NCBI GenBank assembly: GCA_000092065.1
Contig: CP000595.1
DNA length: 64,000 nucleotides
Source of the DNA: Ostreococcus lucimarinus
Taxonomy: Eukaryota
Direction: 5' to 3' (one strand)
Shown here piece by piece: positions 5,533 through 61,977 of the stretch. The position numbers and the translations under genes are program-made. Below the pieces are notes generated by a model, which was not told the DNA's origin, searched no databases, and saw nothing but the letters and a program-made list of their open reading frames with translations. Numbering within the stretch: the first letter of the stretch is position 1; each line of letters opens with the position of its first letter.

Positions 5533-6315
5533 ATGGACGCGAGCGTCGTGCGCCTGGACGCGGCGATCCGCGCGTGGGTGCTGCTGCCGATCACGCTCGC
5601 GATGTTCCTCGTCGGCGCGCTGCGACACCACGCGATGCGACTGACGCGCGACGGCGGCGCGGCGGACGTCGTCGCGCTTCGCGAGGCGAACGTCGCGCGA
5701 CGCGCGGAGCGGTGCCGGCAGTTCGCGGGATACCTGCGACCGGGGGCGTTCGCGGCGAGGCGGACGTTTTACTGCGCGGCGGACGGCGGCGCGCTGCGAA
5801 AGAAGAGCGAAAAAGCGTCGCCGCACGCGGCGATGCTGAGCGATCCGACGGTGATGACGAAAATGATGACGAAGAATGCGATGATGATGGCGCCGAACAT
5901 GCTGACGGCGGCGTGGGTGAATTTTTTCTTCGCGGGATTCGTGGTGGGGCGGACGCCGTTTCCGCTGACGCAGCGGTTTCGGGGGATGCTGCAGCGAGGG
6001 GTGGCGCTGCAGAGCCTGGACGTGACGTACGTGTCGAGCTTGTCGTGGTATTTCTTGAATTTTTTTGGGTTGGGGGGGGTGTTTCAGTTGGTTTTGGGGG
6101 ATAACGAGTTGGACGACGCGGCGGCGATGCAAAACGCGTTCGCGAGCGGGCTCAACGCGGACAAGGCGTTCGCGCACGCGTTGGAGGGGTTGGAGGCGTT
6201 GAAACACGAGTACATGATGCACATCGCCGACGCGCGCGCGACGGCGATGCTGCGCGCGCTGAACGAGGGTAAGAGTCCGCGCGAGGCGAGACTGGCGGCG
6301 GCGGCGGCGCGATGA
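5533..6315 (+). CDS. EMC3: ER membrane protein complex subunit 3 (EMC3 / TMEM111 / Pob family)
   Basis: The residues IRAWVLLPITLAMFLVGALRHH...DPTVMTKMMTKN...NMLTAAWVNFFFAGFVVGRTPFPLTQRFRGMLQRGV...LDVTYVSSLSWYFLNFFGL are collinear with the conserved EMC3 blocks. The ATG at 5533 gives the N-terminal length seen in animal EMC3. An upstream in-frame ATG at 5440 is the alternative start. Confidence 0.8.
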   Translation: MDASVVRLDAAIRAWVLLPITLAMFLVGALRHHAMRLTRDGGAADVVALREANVARRAERCRQFAGYLRPGAFAARRTFYCAADGGALRKKSEKASPHAAMLSDPTVMTKMMTKNAMMMAPNMLTAAWVNFFFAGFVVGRTPFPLTQRFRGMLQRGVALQSLDVTYVSSLSWYFLNFFGLGGVFQLVLGDNELDDAAAMQNAFASGLNADKAFAHALEGLEALKHEYMMHIADARATAMLRALNEGKSPREARLAAAAAR

Positions 6316-6555
6316 AAATCCCAAAGGCTACACTCGCGTCTCCGACGCGCGCGCGCGGCGCGATCGCGAGTAATCGATGTAACTTAGTTTAACTCCATCC
6401 ATCGCGCGTCCGTCGATCGTTCGTTTGGAATCTGTCGCGTCGCGCTCCGCGTCCGCGCCTCGCGCCGTCGCTCGCGCCGCAGTCATCGACGCGCGGCGTC
6501 CGCGCGCGCGCGACGGTCGTCCGCCGTCGTCCGGCGACGCACCGTCGCGGCGTCG

Positions 6556-10743: not shown

Positions 10744-12312
10744 ATGCTCGCCGCCGCCCTCCGCGCGTCGTCCCGCCGCGCGCGCGTCCCGTCAACGTCG
10801 ACGTCGACGTCGCTCGCGCGCGCGCTCTCGTCCGCGTCCGAGGCGTCGGACGCGAGAAAACCAAAGACGAATGCAGAAATCGCCGTGCTCGCCGTCGGTT
10901 TCGCCGGTCTCGCGCTCGGCGCGTACACCGCGGACGACGCCCTGCGCGCGCGCGGCGGCGAAGCGCGCGCGCGAGATCCCGCCGCGGACGCGTGCGCGCG
11001 GGACGACGCGAACGCGCGCGGGAGACGGTTGCGGCGGTGGGCGGAGACGCACGGCGCGACGTTCGCGAGGAGCGACGTTCGGGACGGCGGCGCGCGCGAG
11101 GGCGCGGGCGCGTTCCACAGGGAAAACGATGGCGAGAGCATCGCGCCGAGAGGATTGCGATTGCGAAAGCGCGAGAGGGCGCTGATGACGATACCGGACG
11201 CGGCGGTGGTGAACTGGAACACGGCGGCGGCGCACCCGACGCTCGGATCGACGTTCGAGTCGCTGTTGCGGCGAGGCGTCGTCGACGAAAGGTTGGCGGT
11301 GATGTGTTTCTTCATGATTGAGCGGAGACGCGGGGAGGAGAGCGCGTGGAAAGAGTACATAGACTCGTTGCCGCGCGCGTACGACGCGCCGCTGAGCTTT
11401 AGCGATGAAGAGTTGGAGAGGGAGTTGTCGGGGACGACGGTGTACGCGCCGGTGAAGGCGCAAAAGGCACACGTGAAGAAGATGTTTGAAGAGTGCGTGC
11501 GTCCGGCGATGCGAGAGTTGACGCAGGCGGATAACGCCGCGGGATCGTCGTTGCACATGCTGCCGGACGTGAGCGAGAAGGAGTTTGCGTGGGCGTTTCA
11601 GACGTTTTGGTCTCGCGCGCTGGCGATTCCGGTCGGCGCCGGCGGTTCTGTGACCGTCGATAGCGTGGTGCCGGGCGTGGACATGGTCAATCATGCGCCG
11701 CGCGCGCGTGCGAACGCGAGATGGGAACACGTGGAAGATTCATCGCGTCCGGATGGTGGTTACGTCGCGCTCGTGTCGGCGCCGCCGAATCGCACTATGA
11801 AAGATGGCGAAGAAATTTTCATCAATTACGGCGACAAGTCCAACGAGGAGCTGTTGTTCACCTACGGCTTCGCGTTGAAAGATAACGCCGTTGAAGAACG
11901 AATGGTATTCTTTCCGCCCTGGGCGGGCGACGCAGAGCATTCGGAAGACGTCACGCGCCGGATCGAACTCCTTCGTGCGAAGGGACTGCCGCAGCACGTC
12001 GTCTTGCCCACGACACCACCGAAGCGGGGCTTCAGAGACATGGATGCTACGGTCCAAGAAACGTTACGAATTTGGTGCGCAGACGTTAAAGATTTAGACT
12101 CTCGTCGCCGCGTCGACGACGCGACGCGACGAAAGATTCACAACGTCTTACGCGCGTCCATCGGCGCGCAATCGCACGCACTACGCGATGTCGAACGCGA
12201 GGTTGATCACTCCATCGCGAGCGCGAGAGAGATCGCGTGCGATGTCTACCGACGAGACATTCGCCGTTTGTACGACAATTACATCGAAGCCGCCGCGCGC
12301 TGGGAGTCGTGA
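10744..12312 (+). CDS. SET-domain protein-lysine methyltransferase of the Rubisco LSMT / SETD3-like family
   Basis: The ORF begins with a true ATG. The SET C-terminal block reads GEEIFINYGDKSNEELLFTYGFALKDN, and a helical region like the Rubisco-LSMT substrate-binding domain follows. The N-terminus has a presequence-like stretch and one hydrophobic helix (AEIAVLAVGFAGLALGAYTA). Confidence 0.75.
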   Translation: MLAAALRASSRRARVPSTSTSTSLARALSSASEASDARKPKTNAEIAVLAVGFAGLALGAYTADDALRARGGEARARDPAADACARDDANARGRRLRRWAETHGATFARSDVRDGGAREGAGAFHRENDGESIAPRGLRLRKRERALMTIPDAAVVNWNTAAAHPTLGSTFESLLRRGVVDERLAVMCFFMIERRRGEESAWKEYIDSLPRAYDAPLSFSDEELERELSGTTVYAPVKAQKAHVKKMFEECVRPAMRELTQADNAAGSSLHMLPDVSEKEFAWAFQTFWSRALAIPVGAGGSVTVDSVVPGVDMVNHAPRARANARWEHVEDSSRPDGGYVALVSAPPNRTMKDGEEIFINYGDKSNEELLFTYGFALKDNAVEERMVFFPPWAGDAEHSEDVTRRIELLRAKGLPQHVVLPTTPPKRGFRDMDATVQETLRIWCADVKDLDSRRRVDDATRRKIHNVLRASIGAQSHALRDVEREVDHSIASAREIACDVYRRDIRRLYDNYIEAAARWES

Positions 12313-12502
12313 ACGTCAGCTAGCAACTTGTATTATATACATCGTCGAGCAATCGACGAGCGAGACTAAATTTGATCGTAAATTTTATCGCGGTGGTATT
12401 AAAATAACTCTACACTGGCGGATTACCCCTTTAAATACGTTATGATCCACGCACTAAATATACGATATAGTGCTAAAGTACCCTAGAATATGATAAATTA
12501 TA

Positions 12503-12512
12503 AAACCCTAGG
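12503..12512 (+). promoter_or_regulatory. Telo-box-like motif AAACCCTAGG in the AT-rich island upstream of ALS
   Basis: I read the motif directly from the sequence, about 125 bp upstream of the ALS ATG at 12637. It lies inside the only AT-rich stretch between the SET gene and ALS (12313-12520). AAACCCTA is the plant telo-box core. Its function here is inferred. Confidence 0.3.
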
Positions 12513-12636
12513 AACAAAAACAGCCTGGCGAAAGCCCTGGCTGGCGACGCGACCGACGTCACTCGCGCGCGCACGCGTGCGGCGCGCGCCTCACTCGCAC
12601 GCGCATCGCACGCGACGCGACGCTCAGACGCCCACG

Positions 12637-14670
12637 ATGCGACGCACCGCCGTCGCGAGCGCGCCCGCGCGCGCCCCCGCGTCGCGCGCGGCGCCGCGGA
12701 CACACGCCGCCAATCGCAGCGCCGCGTCGACGAAATTCGCGCGCGCGCGCCGCGCGCCGCGCGCGGTTCGCCAGCCCGACGCGTCGGAGTACGTCGATCC
12801 GTCGCAGTTCACCGAACTCGAGCTGTCCACGGCGCAGATGACGGCGTACGCGAGCAAACGACCGAGAGGGCAGTTCGCGTCGAGGTTCGCGGACGACGAG
12901 CCGCGCAAGGGGTCGGACATCCTGGTCGAGGCGCTCGAGCGCGAGGGCGTGGACTGCGTGTTCGCGTACCCGGGAGGGGCGTCGATGGAGATTCATCAAA
13001 GCCTGACGAAGAGCGCGACGGGGATACGGAACGTGCTGTGCCGACACGAACAAGGGGAGGTTTTCGCGGCGGAGGGATACGCGAAGGCGACGGGTAAGGT
13101 GGGCGTGTGCATCGCGACCAGCGGACCGGGGGCGACGAATTTGGTCACGGGGTTGGCAGATGCGCTGTTGGACTCGGTGCCGATGGTGGCGATCACGGGA
13201 CAGGTGCCGCGACCGATGATCGGGACGGACGCGTTTCAAGAGACGCCCATCGTGGAGATCACGAGACAGATCACGAAGCACAACTATTTGGTGATGAACG
13301 TCGAGGAAATTCCGCGAATCGTGCGCGAAGCGTTCTTTTTGGCCGCTTCAGGACGTCCGGGCCCGGTTTTGATCGATATTCCAAAGGATGTGCAGCAGCA
13401 GTTGGCGGTTCCGTATTGGGAGCCCAAGGTTTCGCTCAACGGTTACTTGAGCCGTCTGCCCGCGCCGCCGACGTCGCCGCAGCTCCAACAAGTTTTGGAT
13501 TTGATTAAGGACTCAAAGCGTCCGGTGGTGTACGCCGGCGGTGGATGCTTGGACGCCGACTTAGAGCTGGTTGAATTCTGCCGCGCGACGGGGATTCCCG
13601 TGACGAACACGCTCATGGGTCTCGGTACGTTCCCGCAGAGCGACGATTTGAGCCTGAGCATGCTTGGCATGCACGGTGCGGTGTATGCCAACTATGCGAT
13701 CGACAGCGCTGATTTGTTGCTCGCTTTTGGCGTGCGATTCGACGATCGTGTGACCGGTAAGTTGGCGGAATTCGCCAAGCGCGCCGCCATTGTGCACATC
13801 GACATTGATCCGGCGGAGCTCGGTAAGAACAAGAAGCCGTTCTGCTCCATCTTTAGCAACATCAAGCCCGCGTTGAAGACTTTGAACAAGTTGATCGCGC
13901 TCGAGAAGGATATGCCCGATTTCTCGGAGTGGCGCGCGGCTATTGACGTGCAGCGCAAAAAGTTCCCGTTTCCGATTCCCGAGCAAGTCGGCGACGTCAT
14001 CGCTCCGCAGGCGGCGATCGAGCTGTTGTGCAAGATGACCGAAGGTAAGGCGATCATCTCCACTGGTGTCGGTCAGCACCAAATGTGGGCGGCTCAGCAC
14101 TACAAGTTTGACGAGCCTCGCAACTGGCTCACGTCTGGTGGTTTGGGTTCGATGGGCTTCGGCTTGCCCGCCGCCATCGGCGCCGCCGCGGCGCGTCCTG
14201 GCGATCTGGTCGTCGACATCGACGGCGATGGCTCGTTCGTCATGAATATTCAAGAACTCGCGACCTTGCACGCGGAAAACTTGCCGGTGAAGTGCTTCAT
14301 CTTGAACAACCAGTACCTCGGCATGGTCGTGCAGTGGGAGGATCGATTTTACAAGGCGAATCGCGGTCACACGTACCTCGGCTCCCCGAATGACGATTTC
14401 CAAGTCTCCAAGGAAGAGGCGCACATTTTCCCCGATTTTGTCACCATCTCACAGGGCTTCCGCGTCCCCGCCGAACGCGTGATGCGCATGAGCGATCTCG
14501 AAGGCGCGATCAAGCGCATGATTGAAGCCGACGGTCCGTACTTGCTCGACGTCATGGTGCCGCACGTCGAGCACGTGTTGCCCATGGTCCCCGGCGGCGG
14601 TACGTTCGCCGACACCATCACCACGGGTGACGGGAGAAGCCCGGAAGAGAAGGACATGAAAACCTTGTAA
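12637..14670 (+). CDS. ALS: Acetolactate synthase (acetohydroxyacid synthase) catalytic subunit, plastid-targeted type
   Basis: The ORF shows full-length ThDP-enzyme collinearity. Diagnostic blocks include [96 protein letters not shown] and [20 protein letters not shown]...[19 protein letters not shown]. The ATG at 12637 gives an Ala/Arg/Ser-rich transit peptide. The track start at 12490 lies in the AT-rich promoter. Confidence 0.95.
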
Positions 14671-53700: not shown

Positions 53701-56700
53701 CGAACAAGGGTGACTTGACGTTCAACACCGCCACCGGACAGTTTGATTATGCCCCGTATCCAAACATGATCGGCGACGACAGATTCGTGTACTTTACGTG
53801 GGATGGATACACCGGTCCAAACGAACGCCCGTTGCAGTCGAAATACGCCACTGTAGAGATTCGCATCGGCAACGGCGAGACGAATCCCGTGGCGCAAGAT
53901 ATTAACGTCGATGTGTGGGAGAACTCTGCTGAGTATTTCACGTTCAGCGCCACCGATGCAGATTCCACCAACACGGAGATGACGAACGATATTCTTCGAT
54001 ATCAAATCTTTGAAGAACCGGAGCTGAATGTTGCGGGTATTCAGCTTGACACTCAGCAAATGAGTGGAGGGAAGCGATATTCCGAAAATGCAACGTTCCA
54101 GTACACGGCGTTCTCGAGTTCTGATCTCGTCAGGCGCGTGTCAGAGCGTATGGCGAACTACGGCACCAACTTCGATTTCAACACTCTTGCGCGAGAAAAT
54201 CATCCGGGATTCAACGTGACGTCCTTCAAATATGTCGCTATCGATTTATCTGGTCGCGTTTCCAACGTCGCAAACGCCTGGGTCTGGGTTCGACTCACCT
54301 CAGAGACGAATTCTCGACCGAGTGCCAACGCGATGACGTTCACCACGCCTGAATCTGTCGGCGTGGCGAGCAATTTCGACACGGCGGATTCCGAATCCCC
54401 GTTGCAACTGAGACACACGCTCCCATCGCTCGCGTTACAGCCGACGCTCGGCGTCGCTGCGCAAGTCGGTATCGCTGCCTCACCCTACGGCAAGGCGTTC
54501 ACATATGAACCGTTTCCATTCTATTACGGCGTTGATGTGTTCGAATACCTCGTCACCGATCCACACGGGTCTACTTCTGATCTCACCACTATCACCGTCA
54601 CGGTCTCGCAAGTCGATCAGCCGCCACAAGGCGCATGCGGAGTGAACTCTACTCTTAAGTCCTCAGCCGATCCGACGTACGATCTCAAAGGACGAACGGC
54701 GGAACTGAGCGTGCTCATGGGTTATCAAATTATCCGCGCCAAGACGATGCGATATTTGATCAATCCCGAGCGAAGAGACTTGGAGTTTTACAATTACTTG
54801 CCCTTTATCAATGATTTGTCCAAGTTTGACAGCGTCATCGATCATCAAAATATATTTTTGTCATGTGGGTCGACTTCAGCTTTGACAACGGCTGCTATTT
54901 ATCACGACCAAGTGACCGCGGTGGCGCTCTTGGCGTACGATGTCGACCAAGCTGTGAACGACACAATACGGTACGTACTAAGTGAACTGCCGACTATAGC
55001 GTCGTCAGATGCAGCACGAGGTACAGCTGGGTACGCTGGTACTCTTTATCGATACGTCGCCCCGAATGGCACATATTACAACTCCACCGGGACGACAGTG
55101 TACTCTTACACATCAGATTCCGTCACCGGACTCACGCCGCTCGCCGCTGGTGATACCATCGGTGACGCCGCGAATGGGGCTGTAATGCTGCTTTTCAAGC
55201 CTCGAGAATACATCCACGGACCAATCACGTTCAAATGGCATGCGGTAGATACAACGACGTCGGCGCGAGGCGACGACGTCGCGATGACAATCAGTGCCAT
55301 GTGCAGAGGAGGTGAAAGCGTCAACGCTGACCATGGAGAAACGTGCGATTTGTGCCCAGTTGGTTCATTCAACTCGGCGAACATAGCCGATCAACAAAGC
55401 TGCGTGCAGTGCCCGGCGGGGAGTTACACCTCCGCCACGGGCTCGACTATTTGCGTGCCATGTCCCGCGGATACGTACGCGAGCACCGCCGGATCGCAAG
55501 TCTGTACACCATGCCCAGCGAACACGCGTTCACCATCAGGAAGCGACGACGTTTCAGATTGCCTGTGCGATATCGGTTTTGTCGTTTCGAACAGCCCGCA
55601 GTGCCATCCTTGCGCGCTCGATCGCGTCAAATGTACCGAACTCGGTCAGTACACACCTCTTCCGTACGATGGATTTTGGCAAGATAGCACAAATGGAAAA
55701 CGAAACCTCACCTGTATCCCGGGCTTGGCTTGTCAAGAGAAGTTTGATAAGGACGAAGTACGCACTGGTGCATGTGCGCAACCTCGGTTCTACGCCAATA
55801 ATGTGACAAATTCTCCCGCGTACGTCGGAGATGGTTGCTCAAAGTGTGCGAAAGATCACTATCGTTACGCGTCCTTCTGCGAAGCGTGTGACCCAGTGCA
55901 AGAAGTAAGAATCTTCTTCGTGATACTGGCGTACTGCGTTGCGCTTTACGCCATGTTCGAACTCGCAACACACCCAGCTATTCCTTCTTTGACGATTTTG
56001 CTGTCATTCACGCAAATCACTGCTCAAATGCAGTACTTTGAAATTCCGTGGCCGAAAGCGCTCGCGCGTTGGATGCAAGTCGCGTCGCTCGCCGTGGCAG
56101 ACTTACAAATCCTTGGTTTAGATTGCGTTTCGACCTGGGACTACTTCACGCGATTCGCGACGACCATGTTCGCACCTTTTGTTTGGGTGTTCGTCCTCGG
56201 CATCGCCATCATTTTACGCTGCTGGAGAGAGATTGCGAATCAAGCTTATGCGAACGTGCAGCGACGGCGACTGATTGAGCGTCGAAGACTGCTCCACGAA
56301 TTTGACGTCGACGCCAAAAAATGGACTGATCTCGCCATCGCTCGCGATGGGTTACCGTTTGATCGCCCCGATTTGAAGGGCAAAGGAGACGACTACAACG
56401 CACTTGAGCTGCATCTGTACGGCAATACTAAAAACGAAGGGTTGCGAAAAAGAGTCTTCAAAGAGGGCGTCGAAGAGTTACGCAAGGCGGATTTGCGGGC
56501 GAAAAGCTCGCAAGAACAGTCCAAGACTGAGCGAAAGCTGAGGCAAACCAAGGATGAAATAGAAGAGCTCGAAAAGCAAAAGGCTGTGAGCGCCAGAATC
56601 ATCCGGGATAACGTCAACCGCGCCATTCCTTCGCTCGTCATCGTCATGTGGTGGGGTTACATGCTCTTGAGCCGCACCGCGATCGAGTACTTTGAATGCA

Positions 56701-58742
56701 AAGATAACACTGAGTCGGTGTTATTGGTGGCGGATCCACAGATAAGATGCAATTTTGATAAGCACTTGCAGTGGAAGCCTGTTGCGTTGATTGGTTTCAT
56801 TCTCTATCCGGTTGGTTTGTTCCTTGCCGCATTTGGCTGGCTTTACGTCCATCGATCAAGCTCAAAGACGCGACCGCGCGTGCACGTCTTGGCCACGAGA
56901 GCGTCTCAGATTGAGAAGGCTCGCGCCGATCAGGTTGAACAATTCAATGCACGTTACGGTATGATGTACAACTGCCTTCGTCCACAATTTTATCTATGGA
57001 TATGTGTTGACCTAGGCAAAAAGTTTTCCATCGTTGGCGTCAAGGTTTTGTTCCCGAACGACATTTTGTTGCAATCATTCGTCTCGATGGTTGTCTTCGT
57101 AACTTTCGGGATCATGAGCACGAGGAATCCTTACGTGAGTGTGAACTTGAACGTAGCGGAAATGCTTGCGACATTCATGAACTCAATCACGCTCATCGCA
57201 GGGTTCTACTTCCAGCTTGGTATCATGGATGACGTGTCTACGCAGATCGCCACGTACGTTATCATCAGTGGTTTGGCTGGCACGACGATTGTCTTGACCG
57301 TCATCGTCGTCGTCGAGTTTTTCCCATGGATGAAGCGCTTGTTTTTCTTGCTCAAGTACAACACGCAAACCGATATTTACAAACCAGATAAAATCGGCAC
57401 GCACGAAAGTGGACCGCAAGGAACTTCGTGCTACATTTTTGCTTCAGATTCAGCGTTCAGATACTGGTGCTGGCGCACAGTTCGTCATCCAGTTTTTGAC
57501 CGTCTCATCACAGCCACCGTGATGATGAGCGTCGGTTGTCTCATTTCGGAGTCTGTCTTATACGACGAAACTTTCACGTCATCTGCGTACGTGCGCATCG
57601 TGTGGTTCAATTCGTTCATGAACGGTATCTTTGTTTTGGAAGCTGCCGTGAAAATCATTGCCATGGGTTTCATCCTTGGCGATGGCGCGTACCTGCGCGA
57701 TACTTTCAACTGCATCGACTTTTTAGTCATCATGTTGCAGTTCATTCTCTTCGCAGTGAACATCACGACGAATGTCACCGGTGCGAGAAGTGCGAGATTT
57801 GTCAAATTCGCGCGCGTGGCGAAGGTCAGAGTCATTCGCGTCTTCCGAAGATTCCTGCAGTTTAACGCCGTCCGCGGCGAGAAATTCCGTCTGATGCTAC
57901 TTGAGGCGAAGGCGGAGGACACGCCCGCGCTCAGCGAGAGCATCGAGCGACTTCGCGTGGTTTTTGAACCACGCAGTGCCGAGACGATGGAATACAACTT
58001 GCGGGTGCTACAGCCCGATGTTTTGCGCGTCGCCCAAGGACTGATTGACGAGCTTTACCAAGAAAAGTTTGATCCTGAATTGGTCGCCGTGTACGAATCT
58101 CAAACCGACGCCGTGCATCAGATGGTGCAGAAGCAATATCACGACATCGTGTACGAATGGCTCGCTTTCGTGGCAGAACCTGGGCAAAAGCGCGCATTTT
58201 TGGCCACGCTGAAGAACATCCGAGACGTCGCCCTGGATCTCGGTCCTGAGGGCATCGCCAAAGAAATGCTTCGTCAAAAGTACGACATCGCCGCCATTCT
58301 CAACACGGCGTTGTACAAGGTTCCAGCCGATGTCAAGACGGACACGCGAGCGTATAAACGAAAGATTGCGAAAGACGCCAAGTCATTCACCAGCACAAAG
58401 GCAACCATCAGCAAACAATTCAACGCCTTCCAGGCTTCCATGCAAAGTGACGACCGCGTCGAAGATGCACTCAACCAGTTGCCGCTGCACTCGGTGGAGG
58501 AAGACAGCGCTCTCGCCAAACGGCGCGCCGAGAACGCGAGCGTGCGCATTCGTAACCGCTCGCTCAATGCGAGTGCAAAAGAGAAAATCATCCAAGATGA
58601 TCTTCAACAGAAAACCTCAGGCGCGGGCGAGCTCCTCGCAGCGGCGTCTAGCGTCGTCGCTGAAGACGACGTCGCTCCCGCCGCGCCGGCACCGGTGAAA
58701 TCGTCCGGATTGTTGGCGCGTTTCCGAAAGAAAAAGACGTGA
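35778..58742 (+). CDS. Giant mosaic membrane protein B (7,654 aa from the ATG at 35778; 7,684 aa from 35688). Order of parts: signal-anchor, PSI x2, EGF-like array, kringle, very long beta-sandwich/Ig-like ectodomain with SMB, ShKT-like and LNR-like inserts, cadherin-like 'VNDPP' modules, ephrin-receptor-like Cys repeats, about 10-TM module, S1-S4 voltage-sensor domain, helical cytosolic tail
   Basis: A single uninterrupted 23-kb ORF with ordinary amino-acid composition throughout. Domain evidence is given in the sub-features and findings. The hydrophobic N-terminus MIAIALFAALGGATPGRA follows both candidate ATGs. Confidence 0.9.
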   Translation: MATATAPTPTRSARTPSAWTRTAMIAIALFAALGGATPGRAAFTADVCYGASWEPTATATKASIGKTVKPVTAVPKEHPLFVDAFAKACLDVGNAAGNTSAATTVRLPKRTNAGNETYWSNAAGACATSPTVSAGQLFYNRAEMGSTLSYADSNTGLEKDKTVRIVFVNDDGKGAHVVVLAGARAATGSSSPEVGLMMEGGSLKNSANVVIEEPRGLTNVVTSGSGCDPSVSSASDCYELDTDLGLGKFRWGSGSDQRGIVIGHVADVNSEFAMKFTLLERIDSVEIGSFDDATFAMSWETIPTASALRGFKIRSATCTNHCALHATCASCATDDACGYCSATKTCTKIDGSCSSGFDVIGECLDTCGAALTCGECADQSGCGWCHTTGRCTAAQLDGSAPQDGNCSAFSVGSSAQCATCPGAVTSTMLPAYVDVDRVSAFCNGRGTCDNITRTCTCSSGYGGDGCEKMCPGGASNPCSRNGLCDSASGSCFCNPGYVGSRCNAATIVGTCECGSAHTYLKSDGTQQRVCSGRLDSSGSCVCLEGWSGVNCTVACAGTLTVGTEVCGGHGTCNVGTGQCDCEPCYSRDATSGLCVQDTCSTCDSSNGVCSCVSGSMQCACRGAFDGYACDQCKCGDHGRCNALSGECECDAGYAGELCERLIEPQPTCANGGTWNAALKRCECAGGYTGTLCDAACTTNPCNDLCSGHGTVNVDGTSCTCFTGFSGSTCNTCATGYGPYPKCGATLANGECTDNIVAYTGTTNVTISGKQCQSWSSQSPFAHTYASSSGSTSNECRNPSSDAHPWCYVDHTAITGSYTRGEPRWEFCSVPTCKSAYVNPQKICGVFGGETVVTFDKDSTSGALNAVSQQALTTTNDAVDKTNCGAMNLTNNDITLHANAAAHGDFVARFAEDSGTGYARRIITHIGLKASVSPAHDSVEVHADGTVKVNSVTKTNDLPYSDGSTGVLCVSDWMPVSSGLASTELLQITISETTVANITKFTACTGCAAQLIVVISVPNSVTSTGICATAGSATSVNFDENAEGSAPWGVGAALNAACGTDTHDPGSVSTVQAKWCDQCQYLGEVYDSCVAQMANEGFNFARAAVIEGCRMAFVAIYGYDRTIPSYLTATASTGATLADTVYPYRSYTPSDVQFKSLSDNRLAFDVLDVTETLPEYIVGTTRTDGSRTRMTGLPREFTGETDTTQVFPFPRIEDSCRTASDIGSTSGYRVYTMNYASATDEALEITMCGSATGTNVGVYTKDFVDIPSADWTHNTTSANGNITFTFTPWIDGLATYEARFEYSLASTKKNVTFDVTRTSANVNIGSFEFYPPTASDSYGSVGFEFSVPSAEAAATVSFTMSPTGTGDSTAANSAFISLTAVFIHAKNYAQASLNYPPFGGFKQVSCANFQAASCGSLKFTATQKTYYIVVSGQKFVSGAYSMQIKKLSADLTTVYTVSSNAATSLVRPLTGLDGAADGTLTPYKVAKYGDNIRVVVRASHAIDRPRITLGNYAVPSSKIVSAGAGAEYSATVTVSASMATSGHITVKVEQASTLTSASYGFKTSTHPLGSDIALVVLDNTAPTVSHAWVVNPSYMLAPSSAPSSCTNLTTSTGKDVNVTAAKYAKAGDYIAVIFTPSENVATIGGTIGGQAATKWVRATAPRDVTLAIDAYKITMSAAYVDAAYALVNDITLSDGVLPFSITFTDAVGNVGTTINSAINSLTGVTASSPLADRLSAARLLYDKSPPRPDSWSLRYASSSEMTGNQGSKPVYYHGFDNVASSAKEYRIGDTLVLTGTWTEYVSRPYGAYMRSSASSGVHVPQSAITITEQGGKLTGKLECMAKEFRPRAQEAVSTAQGFGGTSYVTSTYHKSWKVEANTIDPCDIVGKGALAWSARADCQAEHYAGNSLWIPLWSAWCRHGWGTLGYAVLGGVDPAGNSATALRQVSKSPNNADATVVIASSAVAGDAIIRTPIPIAGKIVPSWMNSVPRGDWTADPKVIEVYIEPQNVRWNEYRRVVKVGDMLQIQFYTDQPVKGVRALIGDDKALPPATHSEVASAMNVERPCSSDPDMQTWLGARGLLALAAEEYNDGSQFSNDDDWFDWLVQTSYNYRQPVPNVPNYPNAAVTCTGFWVQRGLRPNGKRYSVRRLCPNRYYLRRSSFAAQAPLTCSDPNDRIYKATDAYNYWVINFRYVTSHQVVNGDGALQIKWQLTTMDDRVLPTGGGWQTSAAFFTSADTSADVNHLKPTSTDAVGAAFDPAISCGRNADTAFNQAGSAVWAVQDTLAPSCASFVTDGSCASTTVARVANSSGTTFPTVTNPATNVAEHVAVVGDYITLIITFDEHIAAGVYVTLNDGVLTARATKVDKYSATFTFEVTQTLAALNTFLEYKVYNLKDIQEANTATATFTTNVFNAEKIRLQSASELTAFSLTNGACSTTSNNVNNQYAKNGNTVNVSVTLPLPPSSANTVLTIHESKLAGVYVTPPTPTCVGTPNACTITMARTVDSLSADFVDGSVVSWSLVVIGTTKCAHHASSLCITRFKLTSCRPTFASEVVLDFTPPSLTSVRLSEPVTSASLVNGTGQVKVDVVSSEQLYTLTYTLDTRGPLCTYDFGMVSAQSMTLTTDGTLTGTHTKTITATYNSASLHCVLEVICITFVGEDMAGHKLTNPTTCRSFSPTDSEDYPGWFMLHNVGTGPSSVSLARPLGLHCMDSSVDTQACANSASVTSTTLEYGNYLALDVSSGYPIGITDISVDGHSVYAATGFGSSTFQNDNAWTIDCSDLVRDDLCVRFATSATCQAYLCPTCQYAGMCDFSCGYCDSRRAFSKTHKLTLKTTDFGLPATDFTNEVVTVSYRTNPAIAPAATMNSTDTLTYTAPTTSSCAGRCGGTAPSGCECNPTCKSRGTCCADAGHCCTVGLPSTGALNVDGGCLRPNAVTLSVTKESWGVDTKGVRKSNVNRYSTIYIKLTGNKPIDVRRVLIGGVLVPDSDVAIEYNSQTSARQSLNEALVAYGNGNDAQFTSKSAAFAGSLATLPSAAYSWDGNEFSIAFPDIPSTLVATIRVNGANLVPQPDGALTYEVVYRERSGAPYFTDNTELTLTGTGPTWLNPPSISSVSYVLLNSSSTCDLSTPGTPVTAAGNGLTKIEIGHQLRTVVTFSSPVVVRKWTVEGAETNCYGTCHLHGLCKLDPHILPPDEHDEAEYITTWTSCRTFDAKEMTTLENLECGVREFIRAVDRSGNLVMGERWNNLYCFTLPPAIPSQGLIKVRGLTSCYRSTTTKKFGPGCIATIHIEADGEIMEPTVKWWNTATNAYANFPSACVMTATDPTSPSSLVWTLTCAGTAAATFPPSNSYTLQLEVSDVRATDESTFTGTARDTDDGYLGSDKDPIIVDNLAPTPTATVPLSCALVIGSQSTITVTYAVEPSWRPTVSAFGAQVGGVIAQTGALSGFHTVWIAPITVPSDWLGGSPMPFVITNGEDEYGNIDTTSHGNYLSNDNVLTGDVNCSVNVDAPRVTSATCASPSPRVVKPGGSVTVDFSTNVAVTIPSGCVKISGVTVTPTDLGGSKKSWRATATIPSDPPACDGEVALSICAEITDTGNNTGVEVVTQFFGPESEACLIDGTAPVLQLIDFTSDNTYDSKLATVGDTVRLYFEASEMITAPTITLFATATPSATAVETSGPSRRRFPSTVLNAGGTQYATIWTAEYVVDGTTPVGALTWDATGFMDRATNDGTKSACADWNPPSCSIVHAAQTTAQRALEPSINFVGDVVQTFNNFLTTSPSGNVSTLFSCYANSSSTSLSALNLAILKTDLSRHDIVAGGIFQHHLMTAQDLWWQRGGACGTANGLMCRSTCGRCNDAAVVVHRTTTTLTVANVTAGGTAIPGDQCPGGVGTCMCNPTLGDQSEARYIVSTSARDLVSKPTIRFNDTSGTVYTVPEANIVAVSPVMWPTLPTVDCLSESTVRDGVCDPSATLNNRDGCWDGGDCCQDTCRQVFSDGAYCQAQDCRDHSISPVTGRPTSGFWSSYNAKALVARELSVEWKVTFPVDDTLPLIDGVLTGTACCMQDKSGLDVLHANKGTFVAGAPCLDAVLTRDTSCLLRAALTADNGEFVVKENQPVSLTLEFEGNPRGMNCTIGGESVTMTQTRAASSGVTALWSTTRTSVNAVDTAIATRIAASEEQKRRHELLPEVFELNLWANCSRGVTIPFECSISDCGGNLFEITDAVDPTSDVCFDYVRPDATSIGQTSSNTCSNAYAKVGDTLILNVTMDADVSNPTAYTLAGEACTLRTFGTNAFTCDVVVSSTTIEGPANFTFDGIKSSVPAYLDAVNTSYTELKTLSPDGVVTLGGDRVIIDRTAPTFDSLAMYSLEVANKTCQKRCTVRVAIDAAEELSSCTATIGGITANITGTGSERVAEAYIDENSGIAAGEITFSVICLDLACNSVTTSTLVGDTDAVIYSLDRDIPLEVLFYSDRPGHLEIGNENDCLMMEMRFLLAVELKAIVMGNITNNALSLWNITTTGGALVVPGTTHTYYLITHCITDAWGTEDWPVVPWSFTYDDGLQDVVWNTTFTSDVNFPRVVRLDLEDPVATYVYAFTTGANDPSAGLGDALYLDIIASEAVVAPTVTFGGVTLNATDVSQVGTSSEWRAGPYIVKNSTDDPNILKDINDCFLFSVTLKDLVDHTSILYSQQVNATGSLNCVTQRVDIDQDAPTIVWLQTEYVTATTVDFTFAVDELSNVSYVVLPRGAVEPTPLEVQAGTGAAGTGAVASGVKEYLGSSTPSPGAGAGGKGQDVLNITGLLAGTNYDVWFVPFDRFGNSQTEAQSRWIRTVGLDMLINSLATQEGGYTDVIQVKLTQVPTADVSVTISERSGIGNVVLVDQALSLTDYVSSVTLVFTPITWNVAQEVGVKAVDDIYVEDQHTEELKFDVRSLDVRYDALVDPNRTVVIADNDECGVIVYDPNNRPLERTLSCSANAVIALLNYSVAEDTTVYADIYLQAAVRGDDVRVTLTSSDLTQISSPASVTLTFNETNYNLAQRVPIIPVYSCVAALDRYVPIAVSVESATTCGDLVVPEIPVYVTDLQKVGLAFTKAQITGPPGSNYEFDMYLTSQPTSDVQVSLATLPDAFGADLYGSASFNCGAQGPVWTFSADECSVPVTCIVTLVGDDTKCGDVTLQVGAKVTSLDSMYNGISSSPPNMTILETANAAGWYIRNADNTEFIVTPPDAPNGTLPLEPWKVNEQIETGIYTITPTTALCKTVTLRPYIPDTDYARYATISPRQVTLEAGFFGPTKFKVIFPRNYNVPVTNDIVQIWHDVVYGTDDPDYLALSPNLGGSALPVEIVEYDVAGLLLGNGAENTVLIDEPCSTDVTTQVSSLGFTLSSAPSATVVVSLSEMNYNATQLAILKANKHLVLGTTSLSFTPNNWNIPQPVMVSAISYDNLTEARTAYVCGDMTSDDDVYQALNQTCYPVHICDCSGSCGLISFDDHANCTFAADQLNNTEITFPPSMKQLSSCWNISATCGGIQVASLSAAGHDPVMTNFTTLPDSEAYSVSLDKVQRLFYTTQWSVIDKLELPLSLIDGGMQGLTDASGTYCLGISSSSFVVNNTANGGLFVEKAAPMSAFANSFEILPAAANTFDSDVYILEVRVLAGASPLTDSYSLNCTDGGNFSAPGGCIIGPSLRGYFNNATQVMTFTNTAYLPEADLANAAGRKLLGKYPYPSQRRRLLQAPAAPAPASTSQFVWAVNNITFSDISLDPTGATRMMNTRVVDQFGAIVEGPILNIDTEGVNDPPIIDIDLPLIYTEKESLTLNAPLQAYDVDNYNWTQCVVNITDIANNFMAGDTFSYNKTAIVEYYQYWNTSLPAGFVDIDATFTDSQRTVTFAGLAPPAAYLRAMRNLVLLNAGPAMTADDRYIMFCCQDPEALNNKGCGLQRVVFQPVNDPPLAENKIVYLADPRVGGLTGETVPGSDPDGDTFTFNISCLPNKGDLTFNTATGQFDYAPYPNMIGDDRFVYFTWDGYTGPNERPLQSKYATVEIRIGNGETNPVAQDINVDVWENSAEYFTFSATDADSTNTEMTNDILRYQIFEEPELNVAGIQLDTQQMSGGKRYSENATFQYTAFSSSDLVRRVSERMANYGTNFDFNTLARENHPGFNVTSFKYVAIDLSGRVSNVANAWVWVRLTSETNSRPSANAMTFTTPESVGVASNFDTADSESPLQLRHTLPSLALQPTLGVAAQVGIAASPYGKAFTYEPFPFYYGVDVFEYLVTDPHGSTSDLTTITVTVSQVDQPPQGACGVNSTLKSSADPTYDLKGRTAELSVLMGYQIIRAKTMRYLINPERRDLEFYNYLPFINDLSKFDSVIDHQNIFLSCGSTSALTTAAIYHDQVTAVALLAYDVDQAVNDTIRYVLSELPTIASSDAARGTAGYAGTLYRYVAPNGTYYNSTGTTVYSYTSDSVTGLTPLAAGDTIGDAANGAVMLLFKPREYIHGPITFKWHAVDTTTSARGDDVAMTISAMCRGGESVNADHGETCDLCPVGSFNSANIADQQSCVQCPAGSYTSATGSTICVPCPADTYASTAGSQVCTPCPANTRSPSGSDDVSDCLCDIGFVVSNSPQCHPCALDRVKCTELGQYTPLPYDGFWQDSTNGKRNLTCIPGLACQEKFDKDEVRTGACAQPRFYANNVTNSPAYVGDGCSKCAKDHYRYASFCEACDPVQEVRIFFVILAYCVALYAMFELATHPAIPSLTILLSFTQITAQMQYFEIPWPKALARWMQVASLAVADLQILGLDCVSTWDYFTRFATTMFAPFVWVFVLGIAIILRCWREIANQAYANVQRRRLIERRRLLHEFDVDAKKWTDLAIARDGLPFDRPDLKGKGDDYNALELHLYGNTKNEGLRKRVFKEGVEELRKADLRAKSSQEQSKTERKLRQTKDEIEELEKQKAVSARIIRDNVNRAIPSLVIVMWWGYMLLSRTAIEYFECKDNTESVLLVADPQIRCNFDKHLQWKPVALIGFILYPVGLFLAAFGWLYVHRSSSKTRPRVHVLATRASQIEKARADQVEQFNARYGMMYNCLRPQFYLWICVDLGKKFSIVGVKVLFPNDILLQSFVSMVVFVTFGIMSTRNPYVSVNLNVAEMLATFMNSITLIAGFYFQLGIMDDVSTQIATYVIISGLAGTTIVLTVIVVVEFFPWMKRLFFLLKYNTQTDIYKPDKIGTHESGPQGTSCYIFASDSAFRYWCWRTVRHPVFDRLITATVMMSVGCLISESVLYDETFTSSAYVRIVWFNSFMNGIFVLEAAVKIIAMGFILGDGAYLRDTFNCIDFLVIMLQFILFAVNITTNVTGARSARFVKFARVAKVRVIRVFRRFLQFNAVRGEKFRLMLLEAKAEDTPALSESIERLRVVFEPRSAETMEYNLRVLQPDVLRVAQGLIDELYQEKFDPELVAVYESQTDAVHQMVQKQYHDIVYEWLAFVAEPGQKRAFLATLKNIRDVALDLGPEGIAKEMLRQKYDIAAILNTALYKVPADVKTDTRAYKRKIAKDAKSFTSTKATISKQFNAFQASMQSDDRVEDALNQLPLHSVEEDSALAKRRAENASVRIRNRSLNASAKEKIIQDDLQQKTSGAGELLAAASSVVAEDDVAPAAPAPVKSSGLLARFRKKKT
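38037..38273 (+). other. Kringle domain
   Basis: The sequence is CTDNIVAYTGTTNVTISGKQCQSWSSQSPFAHTYASSSGSTSNECRNPSSDAHPWCYVDHTAITGSYTRGEPRWEFCSVPTC. It has six Cys in kringle spacing plus the hallmark strings Y-x-G, CQxW, NxCRNP, PWCY and WExCxxPxC. Confidence 0.8.
44406..44507 (+). other. Somatomedin-B (SMB) domain
   Basis: The sequence is SCAGRCGGTAPSGCECNPTCKSRGTCCADAGHCC. Its eight Cys have the spacing C-x3-C-x7-C-x-C-x3-C-x5-CC-x5-C, which is the SMB pattern. Confidence 0.75.
47625..47729 (+). other. LNR-like (Notch/LIN-12 repeat-like) module
   Basis: The sequence is CLSESTVRDGVCDPSATLNNRDGCWDGGDCCQDTC. It contains DGxCD and the CxWDGGDC signature typical of LNR modules. The Cys count is not fully canonical. 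Confidence 0.5.
57456..57860 (+). other. Voltage-sensor domain (S1-S4 of the voltage-gated cation channel superfamily) with no pore domain after it
   Basis: S1 is FRYWCWRTVRHPVFDRLITATVMMSVGCLISESV. S2 is VWFNSFMNGIFVLEAAVKIIAMGF. S3 is YLRDTFNCIDFLVIMLQFILF. S4 is RSARFVKFARVAKVRVIRVFRRF, with R/K at every third residue. The downstream 290 codons are hydrophilic. Confidence 0.75.
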
Positions 58743-58902
58743 TCGTCATCAAACAAAGTTCAATTATTAATTTACCCCACTAGCGGCGCTTGGGATCACG
58801 ACATTAGCGCCTTGATCCTTGTTATAACGCACCACAGTTATACCGCGCCGACGCGCCGCACACGCCGCCTCGCTCGACGCACCCGATGGCGTGAATCCCG
58901 GA

Positions 58903-61900
58903 ATGTCGCCCCCCACGCTCGACGCCGCGCTTCGTCGCAACGCACGCGAGCGCCCGAGCGCCATCGCGTGCGTCCTCGTCCCGAACGCGCGCGAGAAGAA
59001 CCGAAAGTGCTTCTTCACTTGGGACGAGTTACACGGCGTCGTCGACGCCCTCGCGCGCGTCTTGCGCGCCGACCGCCATCCGCGCGTTCTGAGCTTTTGT
59101 CGCGACGGCGTCGAGGCGTTCGTGGCGCTGCACGCGTGCGCGCGGGCGCGGAAGAGTTTGGTGAACGTGGACGCGGCGACGCCGGCGAGCAGGATTCGGG
59201 ACGTCGCGCGGGACGCGAACGCGACGACGTGTCTGTGCGCGAACGACGGCGATGAAGACTCGGTAAAATCGGTGTTAGGAGAAGACGGTGTCGCGGTGCG
59301 CGTGTGGGAGGTGATTAATGCGGGCGCGGAGGCGATCGAGGCGGAAGAGGACGAGACGCGAGAGGACGACGAAATTTGGATTGCGTACACGAGCGGGACG
59401 ACGGGAAAATGCAAGGGCGCCGCGGCGACGCATCGACGCGCGATGGCGTACGCACGGGCGAAGTGTGAGGTGGAAGAGATCGACGCGTGCTCGCGGGTGT
59501 GCTTGGCGTCGAACGCGACGTTCGATTTGTGGCACGGCGACGCGTGCGCGGCGGCGGCGGCGGGCGCCGCCGTCGTCGTCGCGTCTCGCGCGACTTTTCA
59601 ACACGATTTCGCGAGAGTGTTGCGAGAGGGCGAAGTCACGCACGTGTGTTGCACGCCGACGATGTTCTCGCTGGCGCGACTTCCGCGTGGGATCGTGGAC
59701 GCACCGAAGTTGCGATGCGTATCGCTGGCGGGGGAGCGCATGCGCGAGAGCACAATCGCACTATGGGCCGACGACGTGGCGTTGTACAACGTGTACGGTG
59801 CCACGGAAACGACTGTGGTGCAAACGTACGCAAGAATGCGCAATGCAGAAGACGAAAGCACGAATCGGGCGGGGAAAGCGTACGAAGGATTTGCCAGCGT
59901 GTTCGTCGTGGATGAAATGCGCGAAGGCGAATTGGCGGTGCAATCCTTCGCGCAGAGACGCGGCGTCGAAGGCGAAGTTGCCATCGGCGGTATTTGCGTC
60001 GCAGACGGGTATTTGAACGACCCCGAACGCACGGCACGTGCGTTCGTTCACTCACCATTCGGTACCGTCTATCTCACGGGCGATCGCGGGTACATCGATG
60101 ACGCAGGCGATTTGTATTTGCGCGGTAGACTCGATCGCCAAGTCAAGATTCGCGGTCATCGCGTCGAGTTGGATGAAATCGAAGCCGCGCTTCGTTCGTG
60201 CCCCGCACTATGCGACGACGCCGTCGTGTTCTACGATGCCAATGAGGGAGTGCTGACTTCCCACGCACGAGCAGCTTCGCCGACGTTCGACGCGTCGAGC
60301 GATGCAGATTTATACGCGTTCGCGCTCGAACGCGTCGTCGAGCTACGATTGCCGCGACACATGGTGCCTCGTCGACACGTCTTCATCGAGCACGCGCGAT
60401 GGCCTTTGACTTCGAGTGGAAAAACGAATCGTCAGATACTGCTTCAATGGTTTGCGAGCGGCGAGACGAAGGCGTTTCGACCTAAGCGTGAGAAACCGCA
60501 AGCGGGATTGGAAACAGTCGTCGCGAACGCTTGGGCTGTCGCGCTGGGGCACGGCGACGCGAGCGATATCGGCGCCCTCGACGCGTTCGATGCGCTCGGT
60601 GGAACCTCACTCAACGTTCTCGCAGTTTCAAAAGCGCTGGCGAGCGACGACGGAATCGTGCGCTCGCGCGATACCGCGCGTGGCGAAATTGTGCGCGAAG
60701 CGCGAATTGGTTTACGCGACGGCGAAGCTGCGGCGCTGCTCAACGACGGCGAAGAACCCGCGGCGTGCGCGTTCGACGTCATCGACGGCCCGTTCGCACC
60801 GTGCGAAATATTCGCGAGACCCGTGCTTCGCGATTACGTTGATTATTTGCGAGCGCAAGGTATAGACGCCGACGTGAACGCTCCCGCGTCCACCGCCGTC
60901 GAGCCACAGCGAGATACATCTGCGAATCGTCGCATGCTCGCGGCGTGCGGTCGCGGCGTCGCCCCCGTCGTTCGCGCTTTGCTCGCGACCGGCGTCGAAG
61001 CATCGGGCGAGCACCTTCGAGCCGCCGCCGCGAGCCTCGCCGACGAAGCCGTGGACGTAGTGCAAACTTTACTCGCCGCCGGTGCGGATGCAAGTTCATC
61101 ATCCGCCACAGCCGGTACGCTCGCGACGCACGTCGCCGCCGCTCGCGGGAACTCTGAAATGTTAGAAATGTTGCTCGCCGCCGGCGCTCCAGCGGGAGCG
61201 AAGGACGCGGATAAGCAAACGATTTGTCACTTAGCAGTGCGGAGCGGGGATGTGAGTACCGTGCGCGTCGCGGCAAACGCGTGTAAACACTTGAAGACAC
61301 GCAAAGGTGGCTTGGAGTCGTGGGATCGTTGGAAGCGCACGCCCGCAGCGTGGGCGCTCGTCGCGGGATCGAGTGAAATTTTAGCCGAGTTGCGAGATGC
61401 CGGGGCGAATTTAACATCGCTTGAAACTGACGTCTCCAACGCCTGGGTGCACGGTTCGCTGAGCGCAAAGAGCGAGGTGCAGTTGGCGCATCGCCCGGTT
61501 CGCAAGCGAGGTGCCGCGGCGGAGGTGTTGAGCGCGCTCGCGGCTAGATTGGACGCCGCAAACGTCGAGAGCGAACGTATTGAAGCGGCGACGGCGATTC
61601 GCGAGCTCGTGTGCGCAAACGCAGAGAATCGAGAAAAGGCGCGAACGATCGGTTTGGTGCCAAAACTGTGCGAACTCGCGCGCGATCGTCACTGCGTTGA
61701 AGCCATCGGCGCGTTGAGAAATTTAGCCACCAACACGAGCGCGGCAGGGGCGGCTGGCGACGCCGGAGCTATGGAAATCCTCGGTGATGTCATTCGCGCT
61801 CGTGCTAAATTAAAAGACAGCGAGCTGAGTGCTGACGATAGGCGAGTAGTGTACGCTGCGGCGAGCGCGATGCGCGCGTTGGCGGTGAAGCACGACGCGA

Positions 61901-61977
61901 ATGCCGCGCGATTGCGCGCGTCGAGAGACGTCGCGGACGTCGTCAGTCGATTGTGCGAAGGCATGCGATTAGAGTAG
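58903..61977 (+). CDS. NRPS-like adenylation (A) and thiolation (T/PCP) didomain enzyme fused to ankyrin and armadillo-like repeats
   Basis: The track start at 58891 is GTG, and the first ATG is at 58903. The A-domain core motifs are IAYTSGTTGKCKG (A3), NVYGATETTV (A5), YLTGDRGY (A7), GRLDRQVKIRGHRVELDEIE (A8) and LTSSGKTNRQ (A10). The T-domain motif is FDALGGTSLNVLAVSKAL. The ankyrin repeats include TLATHVAAARGNSEMLEMLLAAGAPAGAKD. The C-terminus reads as ARM/HEAT-like helical repeats. I recognised no C, TE or R domain. Confidence 0.85.
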   Translation: MSPPTLDAALRRNARERPSAIACVLVPNAREKNRKCFFTWDELHGVVDALARVLRADRHPRVLSFCRDGVEAFVALHACARARKSLVNVDAATPASRIRDVARDANATTCLCANDGDEDSVKSVLGEDGVAVRVWEVINAGAEAIEAEEDETREDDEIWIAYTSGTTGKCKGAAATHRRAMAYARAKCEVEEIDACSRVCLASNATFDLWHGDACAAAAAGAAVVVASRATFQHDFARVLREGEVTHVCCTPTMFSLARLPRGIVDAPKLRCVSLAGERMRESTIALWADDVALYNVYGATETTVVQTYARMRNAEDESTNRAGKAYEGFASVFVVDEMREGELAVQSFAQRRGVEGEVAIGGICVADGYLNDPERTARAFVHSPFGTVYLTGDRGYIDDAGDLYLRGRLDRQVKIRGHRVELDEIEAALRSCPALCDDAVVFYDANEGVLTSHARAASPTFDASSDADLYAFALERVVELRLPRHMVPRRHVFIEHARWPLTSSGKTNRQILLQWFASGETKAFRPKREKPQAGLETVVANAWAVALGHGDASDIGALDAFDALGGTSLNVLAVSKALASDDGIVRSRDTARGEIVREARIGLRDGEAAALLNDGEEPAACAFDVIDGPFAPCEIFARPVLRDYVDYLRAQGIDADVNAPASTAVEPQRDTSANRRMLAACGRGVAPVVRALLATGVEASGEHLRAAAASLADEAVDVVQTLLAAGADASSSSATAGTLATHVAAARGNSEMLEMLLAAGAPAGAKDADKQTICHLAVRSGDVSTVRVAANACKHLKTRKGGLESWDRWKRTPAAWALVAGSSEILAELRDAGANLTSLETDVSNAWVHGSLSAKSEVQLAHRPVRKRGAAAEVLSALAARLDAANVESERIEAATAIRELVCANAENREKARTIGLVPKLCELARDRHCVEAIGALRNLATNTSAAGAAGDAGAMEILGDVIRARAKLKDSELSADDRRVVYAAASAMRALAVKHDANAARLRASRDVADVVSRLCEGMRLE

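Follow-up and report, generated by a model that had tools for sequence, protein, structure and literature searches.

A giant surface protein with a voltage-sensor domain

A stretch of 64,000 nucleotides from Ostreococcus lucimarinus (contig CP000595.1, assembly GCA_000092065.1; here called the window) contains an open reading frame (ORF) of 7,684 codons with zero internal stops. Near its C-terminal end, the encoded protein carries four helices (residues 7268-7394) that form a voltage-sensor domain (VSD) without the pore part of voltage-gated channels. Upstream of the VSD lie an ectodomain of about 6,700 residues and a module of nine transmembrane (TM) helices; downstream follow a conserved C-terminal domain (CTD) and a hydrophilic tail (Table 1). 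Pfam searches of the ectodomain revealed EGF/teneurin-like, Big_9/cadherin-like and ephrin-receptor-like Cys-rich domains, and 69 N-x-S/T sequons were counted. Judged by these sequence features, the product appears to act at the Ostreococcus cell surface as a receptor or adhesion-type protein. An initial annotation, made from the nucleotide sequence, had claimed a pore-less voltage sensor in one frame with a giant adhesion-type ectodomain and a multi-TM module, and the single 7,684-residue ORF confirmed this arrangement.

Table 1. Features of the giant ORF and its head-to-head neighbor in the window.
Feature	Residues	Position	Strand	Basis
Giant surface-protein ORF, containing all parts listed down to the tail	7,684 codons plus stop	35688..58742	+	single uninterrupted ORF
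Putative signal peptide or anchor, hydrophobic, preceded by Arg10 run	54-73	35847..35906	+	hydropathy and sequence
Cys-rich EGF/teneurin-like repeats	508-830	37209..38177	+	EGF_Teneurin E 1.1e-7; EGF_TEN; EGF_2
Cadherin-like/Big_9 Ig domain	5957-6043	53556..53816	+	Big_9 E 2.1e-7; Cadherin_4 1.6e-5
Juxtamembrane extracellular stalk, Cys-rich, ephrin-receptor-like/TNFR-like	6536-6615 (Cys-rich to 6735)	55293..55532	+	Ephrin_rec_like E 1.9e-11; Cys columns kept in family alignment
Nine-TM module: TM1-3, charged cytosolic loop of ~140 residues, TM4-9	6741-7215	55908..57332	+	hydropathy, model helices
Cytosolic linker with pre-S1 motif typical of four-domain channel repeats, SCYIFASDSAFR...V-R-H-P-V-F-D	7216-7267	57333..57488	+	R7258 and F7270 identical in all 46 channel VSDs
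VSD helix S1	7268-7291	57489..57560	+	hydropathy, models
VSD helix S2 with charge-transfer-centre residues F7315, E7318, K7322	7299-7329	57582..57674	+	sequence, alignment, model
VSD helix S3 with R7337, N7341, D7344	7337-7363	57696..57776	+	sequence, alignment, model
VSD helix S4, gating charges followed by basic extension	7367-7394	57786..57869	+	sequence, alignment, model
CTD, cytosolic, helical: short helix and six-helix bundle	7395-7530	57870..58277	+	alignments, profile, structure model
Hydrophilic C-terminal tail with conserved basic motif at its end	7531-7684	58278..58739	+	56% identical in orthologue
Paralogue: ectodomain of the same type, related multi-TM module; no VSD, no detectable CTD	3,246 residues	25891..35631	-	head-to-head with the giant gene

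The voltage sensor is of the Cav/Nav type

The Pfam profile Ion_trans (PF00520) matched the domain with an E-value of 4.6e-13 (49.4 bits; cut-off 25), covering only profile positions 1-112 of 241, which represent the S1-S4 half. A phmmer search of PDB sequences retrieved exclusively Cav and Nav alpha subunits, with Cav2.3 as top match (E 8.8e-34) and repeats I and III at about 49 bits each. Among 1.84 billion representatives searched exhaustively with HMMER, 2,303 matched at E<=1e-3. Of the 150 best, nearly all were four-repeat channels of 1,400-2,500 residues that aligned to the VSD stretch alone, and channel repeats I and III displayed the highest mean scores against the VSD. The homology detected by Pfam, PDB and HMMER searches thus puts the identity of the VSD beyond chance.

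Strings quoted in the initial annotation for S2 (FVLEAAVKIIAMGF), S3 (FNCIDFLVIM) and S4 (RSARFVKFARVAKVRVIRVFRRF) were all found at their residues. The gating charges R7367, R7370, K7373, R7376 and K7379 follow the i+3 spacing described there; the basic extension behind them comprises R7381, R7384, R7387 and R7388. Five basic residues in i+3 spacing were found at a single place in the protein, and 24 of 2,000 composition-preserving shuffles contained such a run. The pre-S1 stretch reads ...SCYIFASDSAFRYWCWRTVRHPVFDRLI (translation of 57306-58760). Its motif is indeed of the channel type, and the earlier formula R-x-x-V-x-H-P-x-F is better written as R7258-x6-V-x-H-x-x-F-D, which matches the consensus of 46 channel VSDs. 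S1 (LITATVMMSVGCLIS) contains neither Asp nor Glu. Two N-x-T sequons (NIT and NVT) are located in the S3-S4 loop.

For structure prediction with AlphaFold2 (AF2), residues 7225-7530 of the window protein were aligned with six family members, two CTD segments of VSD-less relatives and the 46 channel VSDs. The resulting model of VSD and CTD had a mean predicted local distance difference test (pLDDT) score of 80, with values of 85-96 for S1-S3 and 80-94 for the following helical domain. S4 was modelled as a single helix of 28 residues (7367-7394) continuing into the CTD. Foldseek matched the VSD model to voltage-gated channels or SLC9C1 and to nothing else; Cav1.2 and Nav1.7 as well as NALCN and TPC1 are the structures named with this result. 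The profile and structure comparisons therefore support the earlier claim. With the Ion_trans match over S1-S4, basic residues at every third position of S4, a charge-transfer centre and a four-helix fold, the domain is a genuine VSD of the Cav/Nav type in which every hallmark residue is kept.

The charge-transfer residues are conserved across relatives

Orthologues with approximately 65% identity (P0005-7, P0208, P0226, P0234, L001 and L002) keep the whole arrangement in one frame. L001 is a 496-kb contig with long-read frameshifts and L002 a scaffold; in both, the orthologous ORFs run continuously through the corresponding regions. Comparison of the window with L002 showed 73% identity for TM4-9, 72% for the CTD and 54.5% for the VSD, the lowest value of the structured regions. 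Within this VSD pair, F7315, E7318, K7322, R7337, N7341, D7344 and eight of the nine basic residues of S4 were identical or conservatively replaced. Three of these residues (F7315, E7318 and D7344) were invariant in all six family members and all 46 channel VSDs, and in the same set K7322, N7341 and the S4 charges were invariant or conservatively replaced.

The VSD residues are shared by the distant members P0069 (45% identity), P0102/P0209, P0107 (~25-30%) and P0010 (29%), whose S4 pattern shows basic residues at positions 1, 4, 7, 10, 13, 15, 18 and 21. The 6,608-residue P0010 aligned in a single stretch over TM4-9 and the VSD, followed by a hydrophilic tail. In P0209, TM8/9, VSD and CTD are located within one ORF. 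The P0069 contig also encodes chlorophyll a/b-binding and ferredoxin genes.

The low identity of the VSD between orthologues would also fit a domain that does not respond to voltage but serves structure, assembly or lipid interaction, or persists as a slowly decaying relic of domain shuffling. TMEM266 is a pore-less VSD protein without obvious output (PMC13095418), and one metagenomic orthologue, L002, has an in-frame stop ahead of the VSD. We consider a voltage-insensitive VSD distinctly unlikely. In support of the initial annotation, the gating charges as well as Phe, Glu and Lys of S2 and Asn and Asp of S3, the counter-charges among them, are kept in orthologues and relatives down to about 29% identity while other positions vary freely, the pattern expected for selection on the charge-transfer machinery. 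Moreover, orthologue copies other than L002 are without such a stop.

The stop in L002 (~1811-1813; frame 2, codon 604) precedes the VSD and falls within the loop between TM5 and TM6, where LYAH*STSK stands for the LYAHRSTSK of other copies. A sequencing error, a polymorphism or a pseudogene may be behind it.

One fragment from the orthologue's cluster, P0240 (ERR1712159), has the 'merc' catalogue as its source, which we take to be built from Tara Oceans metatranscriptomes. It comprises S3, S4, CTD and tail, the TM9/VSD junction lying outside the fragment, and suggests that the VSD-CTD region is transcribed.

No pore domain follows S4

Neither the window protein nor any family member contains S5-P-S6 after S4. 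No 19-residue window past S4 rose above the hydropathy threshold for a hydrophobic segment, and the AF2 model displayed soluble helices only in this part. The Ion_trans match ended at profile position 108-118 in the window protein and six further family members, leaving positions 113-241 unmatched. The protein is not a six-TM voltage-gated channel unit, as the pore domain is missing. While the pore-less nature of the VSD was correctly recognized in the initial annotation, its position at the C-terminus was not: S4 is followed by 290 residues (7395-7684), approximately 135 of which (7395-7530) constitute a conserved folded domain.

Such a protein might in principle result from an assembly chimera, from a conventional channel gene that is read through, or from a pore hidden by a frameshift or an intron. 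The gene model is an ORF call, and P0240, the sole transcript-derived fragment, spans S3 to the tail and not the TM9/VSD junction. However, the junctions between TM9, linker, VSD and CTD are found in one frame across several independent assemblies and distant lineages, and in-frame conservation extends over the 290 residues that follow S4. No alternative plus-strand ORF of at least 150 residues overlaps the post-S4 stretch, and the downstream neighbor (58891-61977, +) codes for an unrelated AMP-binding/ankyrin protein and not for a separate channel; a pore in another frame or in the next gene was rejected on these grounds. An artefact is hardly credible. The initial annotation had named as contrary evidence a lack of profile or structure matches to VSDs, an S4 periodicity lost in orthologues, a pore domain in the same transcript or a separate conventional channel gene; none of these was observed.

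Because the pore domain is absent, any current through this part of the protein would have to cross the VSD itself. Hv1 provides a precedent (PMC13095418), and the initial annotation had considered proton or omega currents. The sequences make an Hv1-like proton current or a constitutive omega current very improbable. A mid-S1 acidic residue is absent from every family member, all five S4 charges and the Phe of the hydrophobic plug in S2 are present, and the Hv1 S4 signature R-x-W-R-x-x-R is absent. Chains of Hv1, voltage-sensing phosphatases (VSP), TMEM266 and SLC9C1 remained unmatched in the PDB sequence search even at E<=10.

The nine-TM module is linked to PF06011 through intermediates

Hydropathy and model helices gave nine TM helices upstream of the VSD, one fewer than the approximately ten of the initial annotation. 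The predicted topology is N-terminus out and C-terminus in, with Cys pairs and sequons in outer loops and basic residues in inner loops. Together with the count of nine helices, this orientation would make S1 begin on the cytosolic side, as required for a VSD.

By alignment, the module family includes P0010, P0062 ([Myrmecia] bisecta KAK9818094, 5,241 residues), P0152 (Cymbomonas tetramitiformis KAK3279970), P0084, P0076 and P0016, and the product of the head-to-head gene in the window is a more distant member. The Pfam family PF06011 ('TRP') represents the fungal Flc/Pkd2/TrpR group. Its profile matched the module of P0062 with an E-value of 6.7e-11 (42.1 bits; cut-off 28.5), followed by P0084 (1.8e-5), P0159, a fragment of a 67% orthologue (2e-5), and P0152 (5e-3). 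These matches lie on the last four helices of the profile, and P0159 carries the PF06011 annotation in the precomputed table. The module of the window protein in turn matched that of P0062 at E 2.6e-18. Via these intermediates, the nine-TM module appears to be a green-algal family distantly related to the fungal Flc/Pkd2 'TRP-like' proteins, which are putative Ca2+ channels activated by stretch. An ML-like/TRP_N domain had no Pfam match anywhere in the 7,684 residues, its place being taken by the Cys-rich ephrin-receptor-like stalk. Sequence and profile searches of the PDB with the module returned nothing credible.

Pkd2 of S. pombe is predicted to span the membrane with nine helices between an extracellular domain and a cytosolic tail (10.1101/2022.08.11.503631). 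Reconstituted Pkd2 was permeable to Ca2+ upon membrane stretch (PMC9727806), and the PF06011 family has been used for finding putative fungal Ca2+ channels (PMC8618638).

An abundant marine relative is represented by the P0016 cluster (37 members; Tara, JGI) with gene calls of ~920-1,030 residues. These harbor a Big_9 and ephrin-receptor-like ectodomain, TM1-3 and the same cytosolic-loop motifs, and end soon after. Truncation of the gene calls may explain this, or the relatives may form a paralogue family of shorter proteins.

The VSD appears inserted between the module and its CTD

The CTD is characterized by the motifs ...EAKxxD...F(E/D)...YL...LY... and ...YEWLAF.A..G.K.AF.... PDB searches with CTD and tail yielded nothing credible. 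The 'YEWLAF...KRAF' part (residues 7468-7506; 58089-58205) weakly resembled Pumilio repeats (5ykh, E 3e-4), with no stretch passing alone; this is probably a chance similarity between helical repeats.

In the alignment, the VSD-less P0152 (Cymbomonas), P0084 and P0062 (Myrmecia) have gaps where the VSD stands and pair up again from the CTD on. TM9 of P0152 and P0084 leads straight into the CTD. A CTD profile calculated from VSD-bearing members only and used to scan 161 sequences detected P0152 (E 1.6e-6, collinear) and P0084 (9.8e-5). Since the CTD directly follows TM9 in relatives without a VSD, the VSD and its channel-type pre-S1 segment appear as an insertion between a pre-existing module and its CTD, and the CTD would primarily be a partner of the nine-TM module.

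The order of domains also allows an output like that of VSPs, in which a working sensor would act on CTD and tail as a scaffold, lipid binder or partner recruiter, the nine-TM module being a mere anchor. S4 leads directly into the CTD in the AF2 model, and both CTD (72%) and tail (56%) are conserved between orthologues. The basic stretch after K7379 is similar in character to the basic lipid-binding linker of Ci-VSP. In contrast, the same CTD after TM9 in VSD-less relatives argues against such an output, and neither a catalytic nor a known binding domain was detected in the post-S4 region by Pfam, NCBIfam and PDB searches. We regard a VSP-like output as a minor possibility, on balance unlikely.

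Gene neighborhood

The first ATGs of the giant gene and of its head-to-head paralogue are only 56 bp apart. The cytosolic tail of the paralogue differs and comprises 1,400 residues. Near the N-terminus of the giant protein, a run of ten arginines (residues 15-24; 35730-35759) precedes the hydrophobic stretch, and the true start may be the Met at residue 31 or at residue 54.

Downstream, the AMP-binding/ankyrin gene is followed by a gene for alpha-glucan water dikinase on the opposite strand. In L001 and L002 the dikinase gene stands directly after the giant gene, and the AMP-binding/ankyrin ORF intervenes only in the window, which represents a lineage-specific gene insertion or loss. The G+C content of both giant genes (28000-34000 and 38000-58000) is 0.50-0.57 compared to 0.60-0.68 in the flanking housekeeping genes, with a minimum of 0.502 in the 56-58 kb stretch coding for TM module and VSD. 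Giant-gene codon usage or a different origin may account for the low values.

Two further ORFs of the window, 10744-12312 (uncharacterised) and 12490-14670 (acetolactate synthase), fall into clusters of at least 90% identity with the adjacent O. lucimarinus CCE9901 proteins XP_001421625 and XP_001421626. The exact 7,684-residue sequence was absent from the protein collection searched.

Proposed role of the voltage sensor

We propose, with about even confidence, that the VSD was copied from a type I/III repeat of a four-domain Cav/Nav-like channel, inserted between TM9 and the CTD, and regulates the nine-TM module. According to this model, the VSD and its pre-S1 segment, without the pore, would have entered between TM9 and the module's own CTD in one subfamily. 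The full set of gating charges and counter-charges suggests that the VSD moves with membrane potential. S4, predicted to extend as one long basic helix into the CTD, could then reposition this domain and possibly also its contact with inner-leaflet lipids. Displacement of the CTD might modulate the nine-TM module, possibly a Ca2+-permeable mechanosensitive pathway, and thereby confer a voltage-dependent receptor or channel-like activity. The logic would be akin to SLC9C1 and, as regards how S4 connects to a cytosolic domain, to VSPs. Among the uses of the sensor suggested in the initial annotation, gating of the upstream module is best supported because the module is related to the putatively Ca2+-permeable Flc/Pkd2 proteins and because the VSD is located between module and CTD.

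Several points weigh against this proposal. The path from S4 via the CTD to the module is deduced from linear order and one AF2 model, in which S4 and the junction are the parts of lowest confidence (pLDDT 60-68). The model that covers the entire membrane region is of low quality (pLDDT 56.8); its helices are readable and the interface between VSD and module is not. For the CTD, Pfam, NCBIfam and PDB yielded no relative. The module of the window protein gave no PF06011 match at E<=1 and full-length orthologues gave none at E<=0.1, so that the PF06011 link is only transitive. In addition, the channel nature of PF06011 proteins is only partly established. A neighbor-joining tree of VSDs grouped the family VSDs with a bootstrap value of just 24% for a single origin, which therefore rests on the shared architecture and not on the tree.

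A Cav-type sensor transplanted into an unrelated receptor would make the coupling of S4 motion to arbitrary effectors testable. Sensor-less paralogues occur naturally, one of them in the adjacent gene, and are usable as built-in controls. The protein further suggests a part for membrane potential in the surface sensing of a picoalga that is non-motile, lacks a wall and has worldwide ecological importance; Ostreococcus is the smallest free-living eukaryote. The poorly understood Flc/Pkd2 (PF06011) family would also gain a new handle for electrophysiology.

Comparison with known systems

To our knowledge, only a handful of protein types, namely Hv1, VSP/TPTE, TMEM266 and SLC9C1, use an S1-S4 sensor for purposes other than a canonical pore. 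Each of these pore-less types changed the understanding of voltage sensing and gave rise to tools, genetically encoded voltage indicators among them. The initial annotation rightly pointed out how few such families exist. SLC9C1 was missing from its list, and since this protein has a 13-TM transporter domain, TM helices ahead of a pore-less VSD are not unprecedented. Membership of the giant protein in the polycystin-1, VSP, SLC9C1 or Hv1 families was rejected, as the respective diagnostic domains or residues were not found. The literature searches made did not reveal a described precedent for a giant protein combining TM module, VSD and CTD.

Polycystin-1 (PKD1) is similar in concept only, combining a giant adhesion-type ectodomain with a multi-TM module related to channels. 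Pfam searches of the whole Ostreococcus protein detected no GAIN/GPS, REJ, PLAT or PKD_channel domain, and the membrane parts are non-homologous by the tests run. Hv1 and TMEM266 share the pore-less S1-S4 and an S4 that continues into a cytosolic helix. They are small proteins with nothing upstream, whereas the giant protein lacks the S1 Asp selectivity residue and the S4 Trp, possesses five instead of three S4 charges and shows no detectable sequence similarity to them. VSPs (Ci-VSP, TPTE) carry a PTEN-like phosphatase and C2 domain, for which no counterpart was detected in residues 7395-7684 by Pfam, NCBIfam and PDB searches; there is no sequence match either, and the giant protein has nine additional TM helices and the ectodomain upstream.

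By sequence, the VSD with its pre-S1 segment is closest to repeats I and III of Cav, Nav and NALCN channels, which have an identical charge-transfer centre and five S4 charges. The giant protein differs from these four-domain channels by the lack of S5-P-S6, by one VSD rather than four and by its embedding in an unrelated protein. Like the fungal Flc/Pkd2/TrpR proteins, it begins with an extracellular domain and ends in a cytosolic tail, with nine TM helices in between. The fungal proteins have neither a VSD nor a giant ectodomain, and their ML-like/TRP_N domain was not found here.

The nearest architectural precedent is SLC9C1, whose long S4 couples three parts: a 13-TM transporter domain, a peripheral VSD and a cytosolic domain (PMC13095418). 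Only the order of TM module, VSD and cytosolic domain is common to both. The giant protein has no Pfam match to Na_H_Exchanger or cNMP_binding/CNBD and no match to SLC9C1 at the sequence level, it carries an ectodomain of ~6,700 residues, and it belongs to green algae rather than to metazoan sperm. Tentatively, it may represent a fifth class of pore-less VSD protein, a voltage-regulated giant receptor with a Cav-derived VSD between an Flc/Pkd2-like nine-TM module, putatively Ca2+-permeable and mechanosensitive, and a CTD, in which surface contact or mechanical sensing could be gated by, or report to, membrane potential. Apart from the giant ectodomain, such a protein would be unusual in that its VSD lies C-terminal to a putative permeation module, if true the reverse of every known voltage-gated channel.

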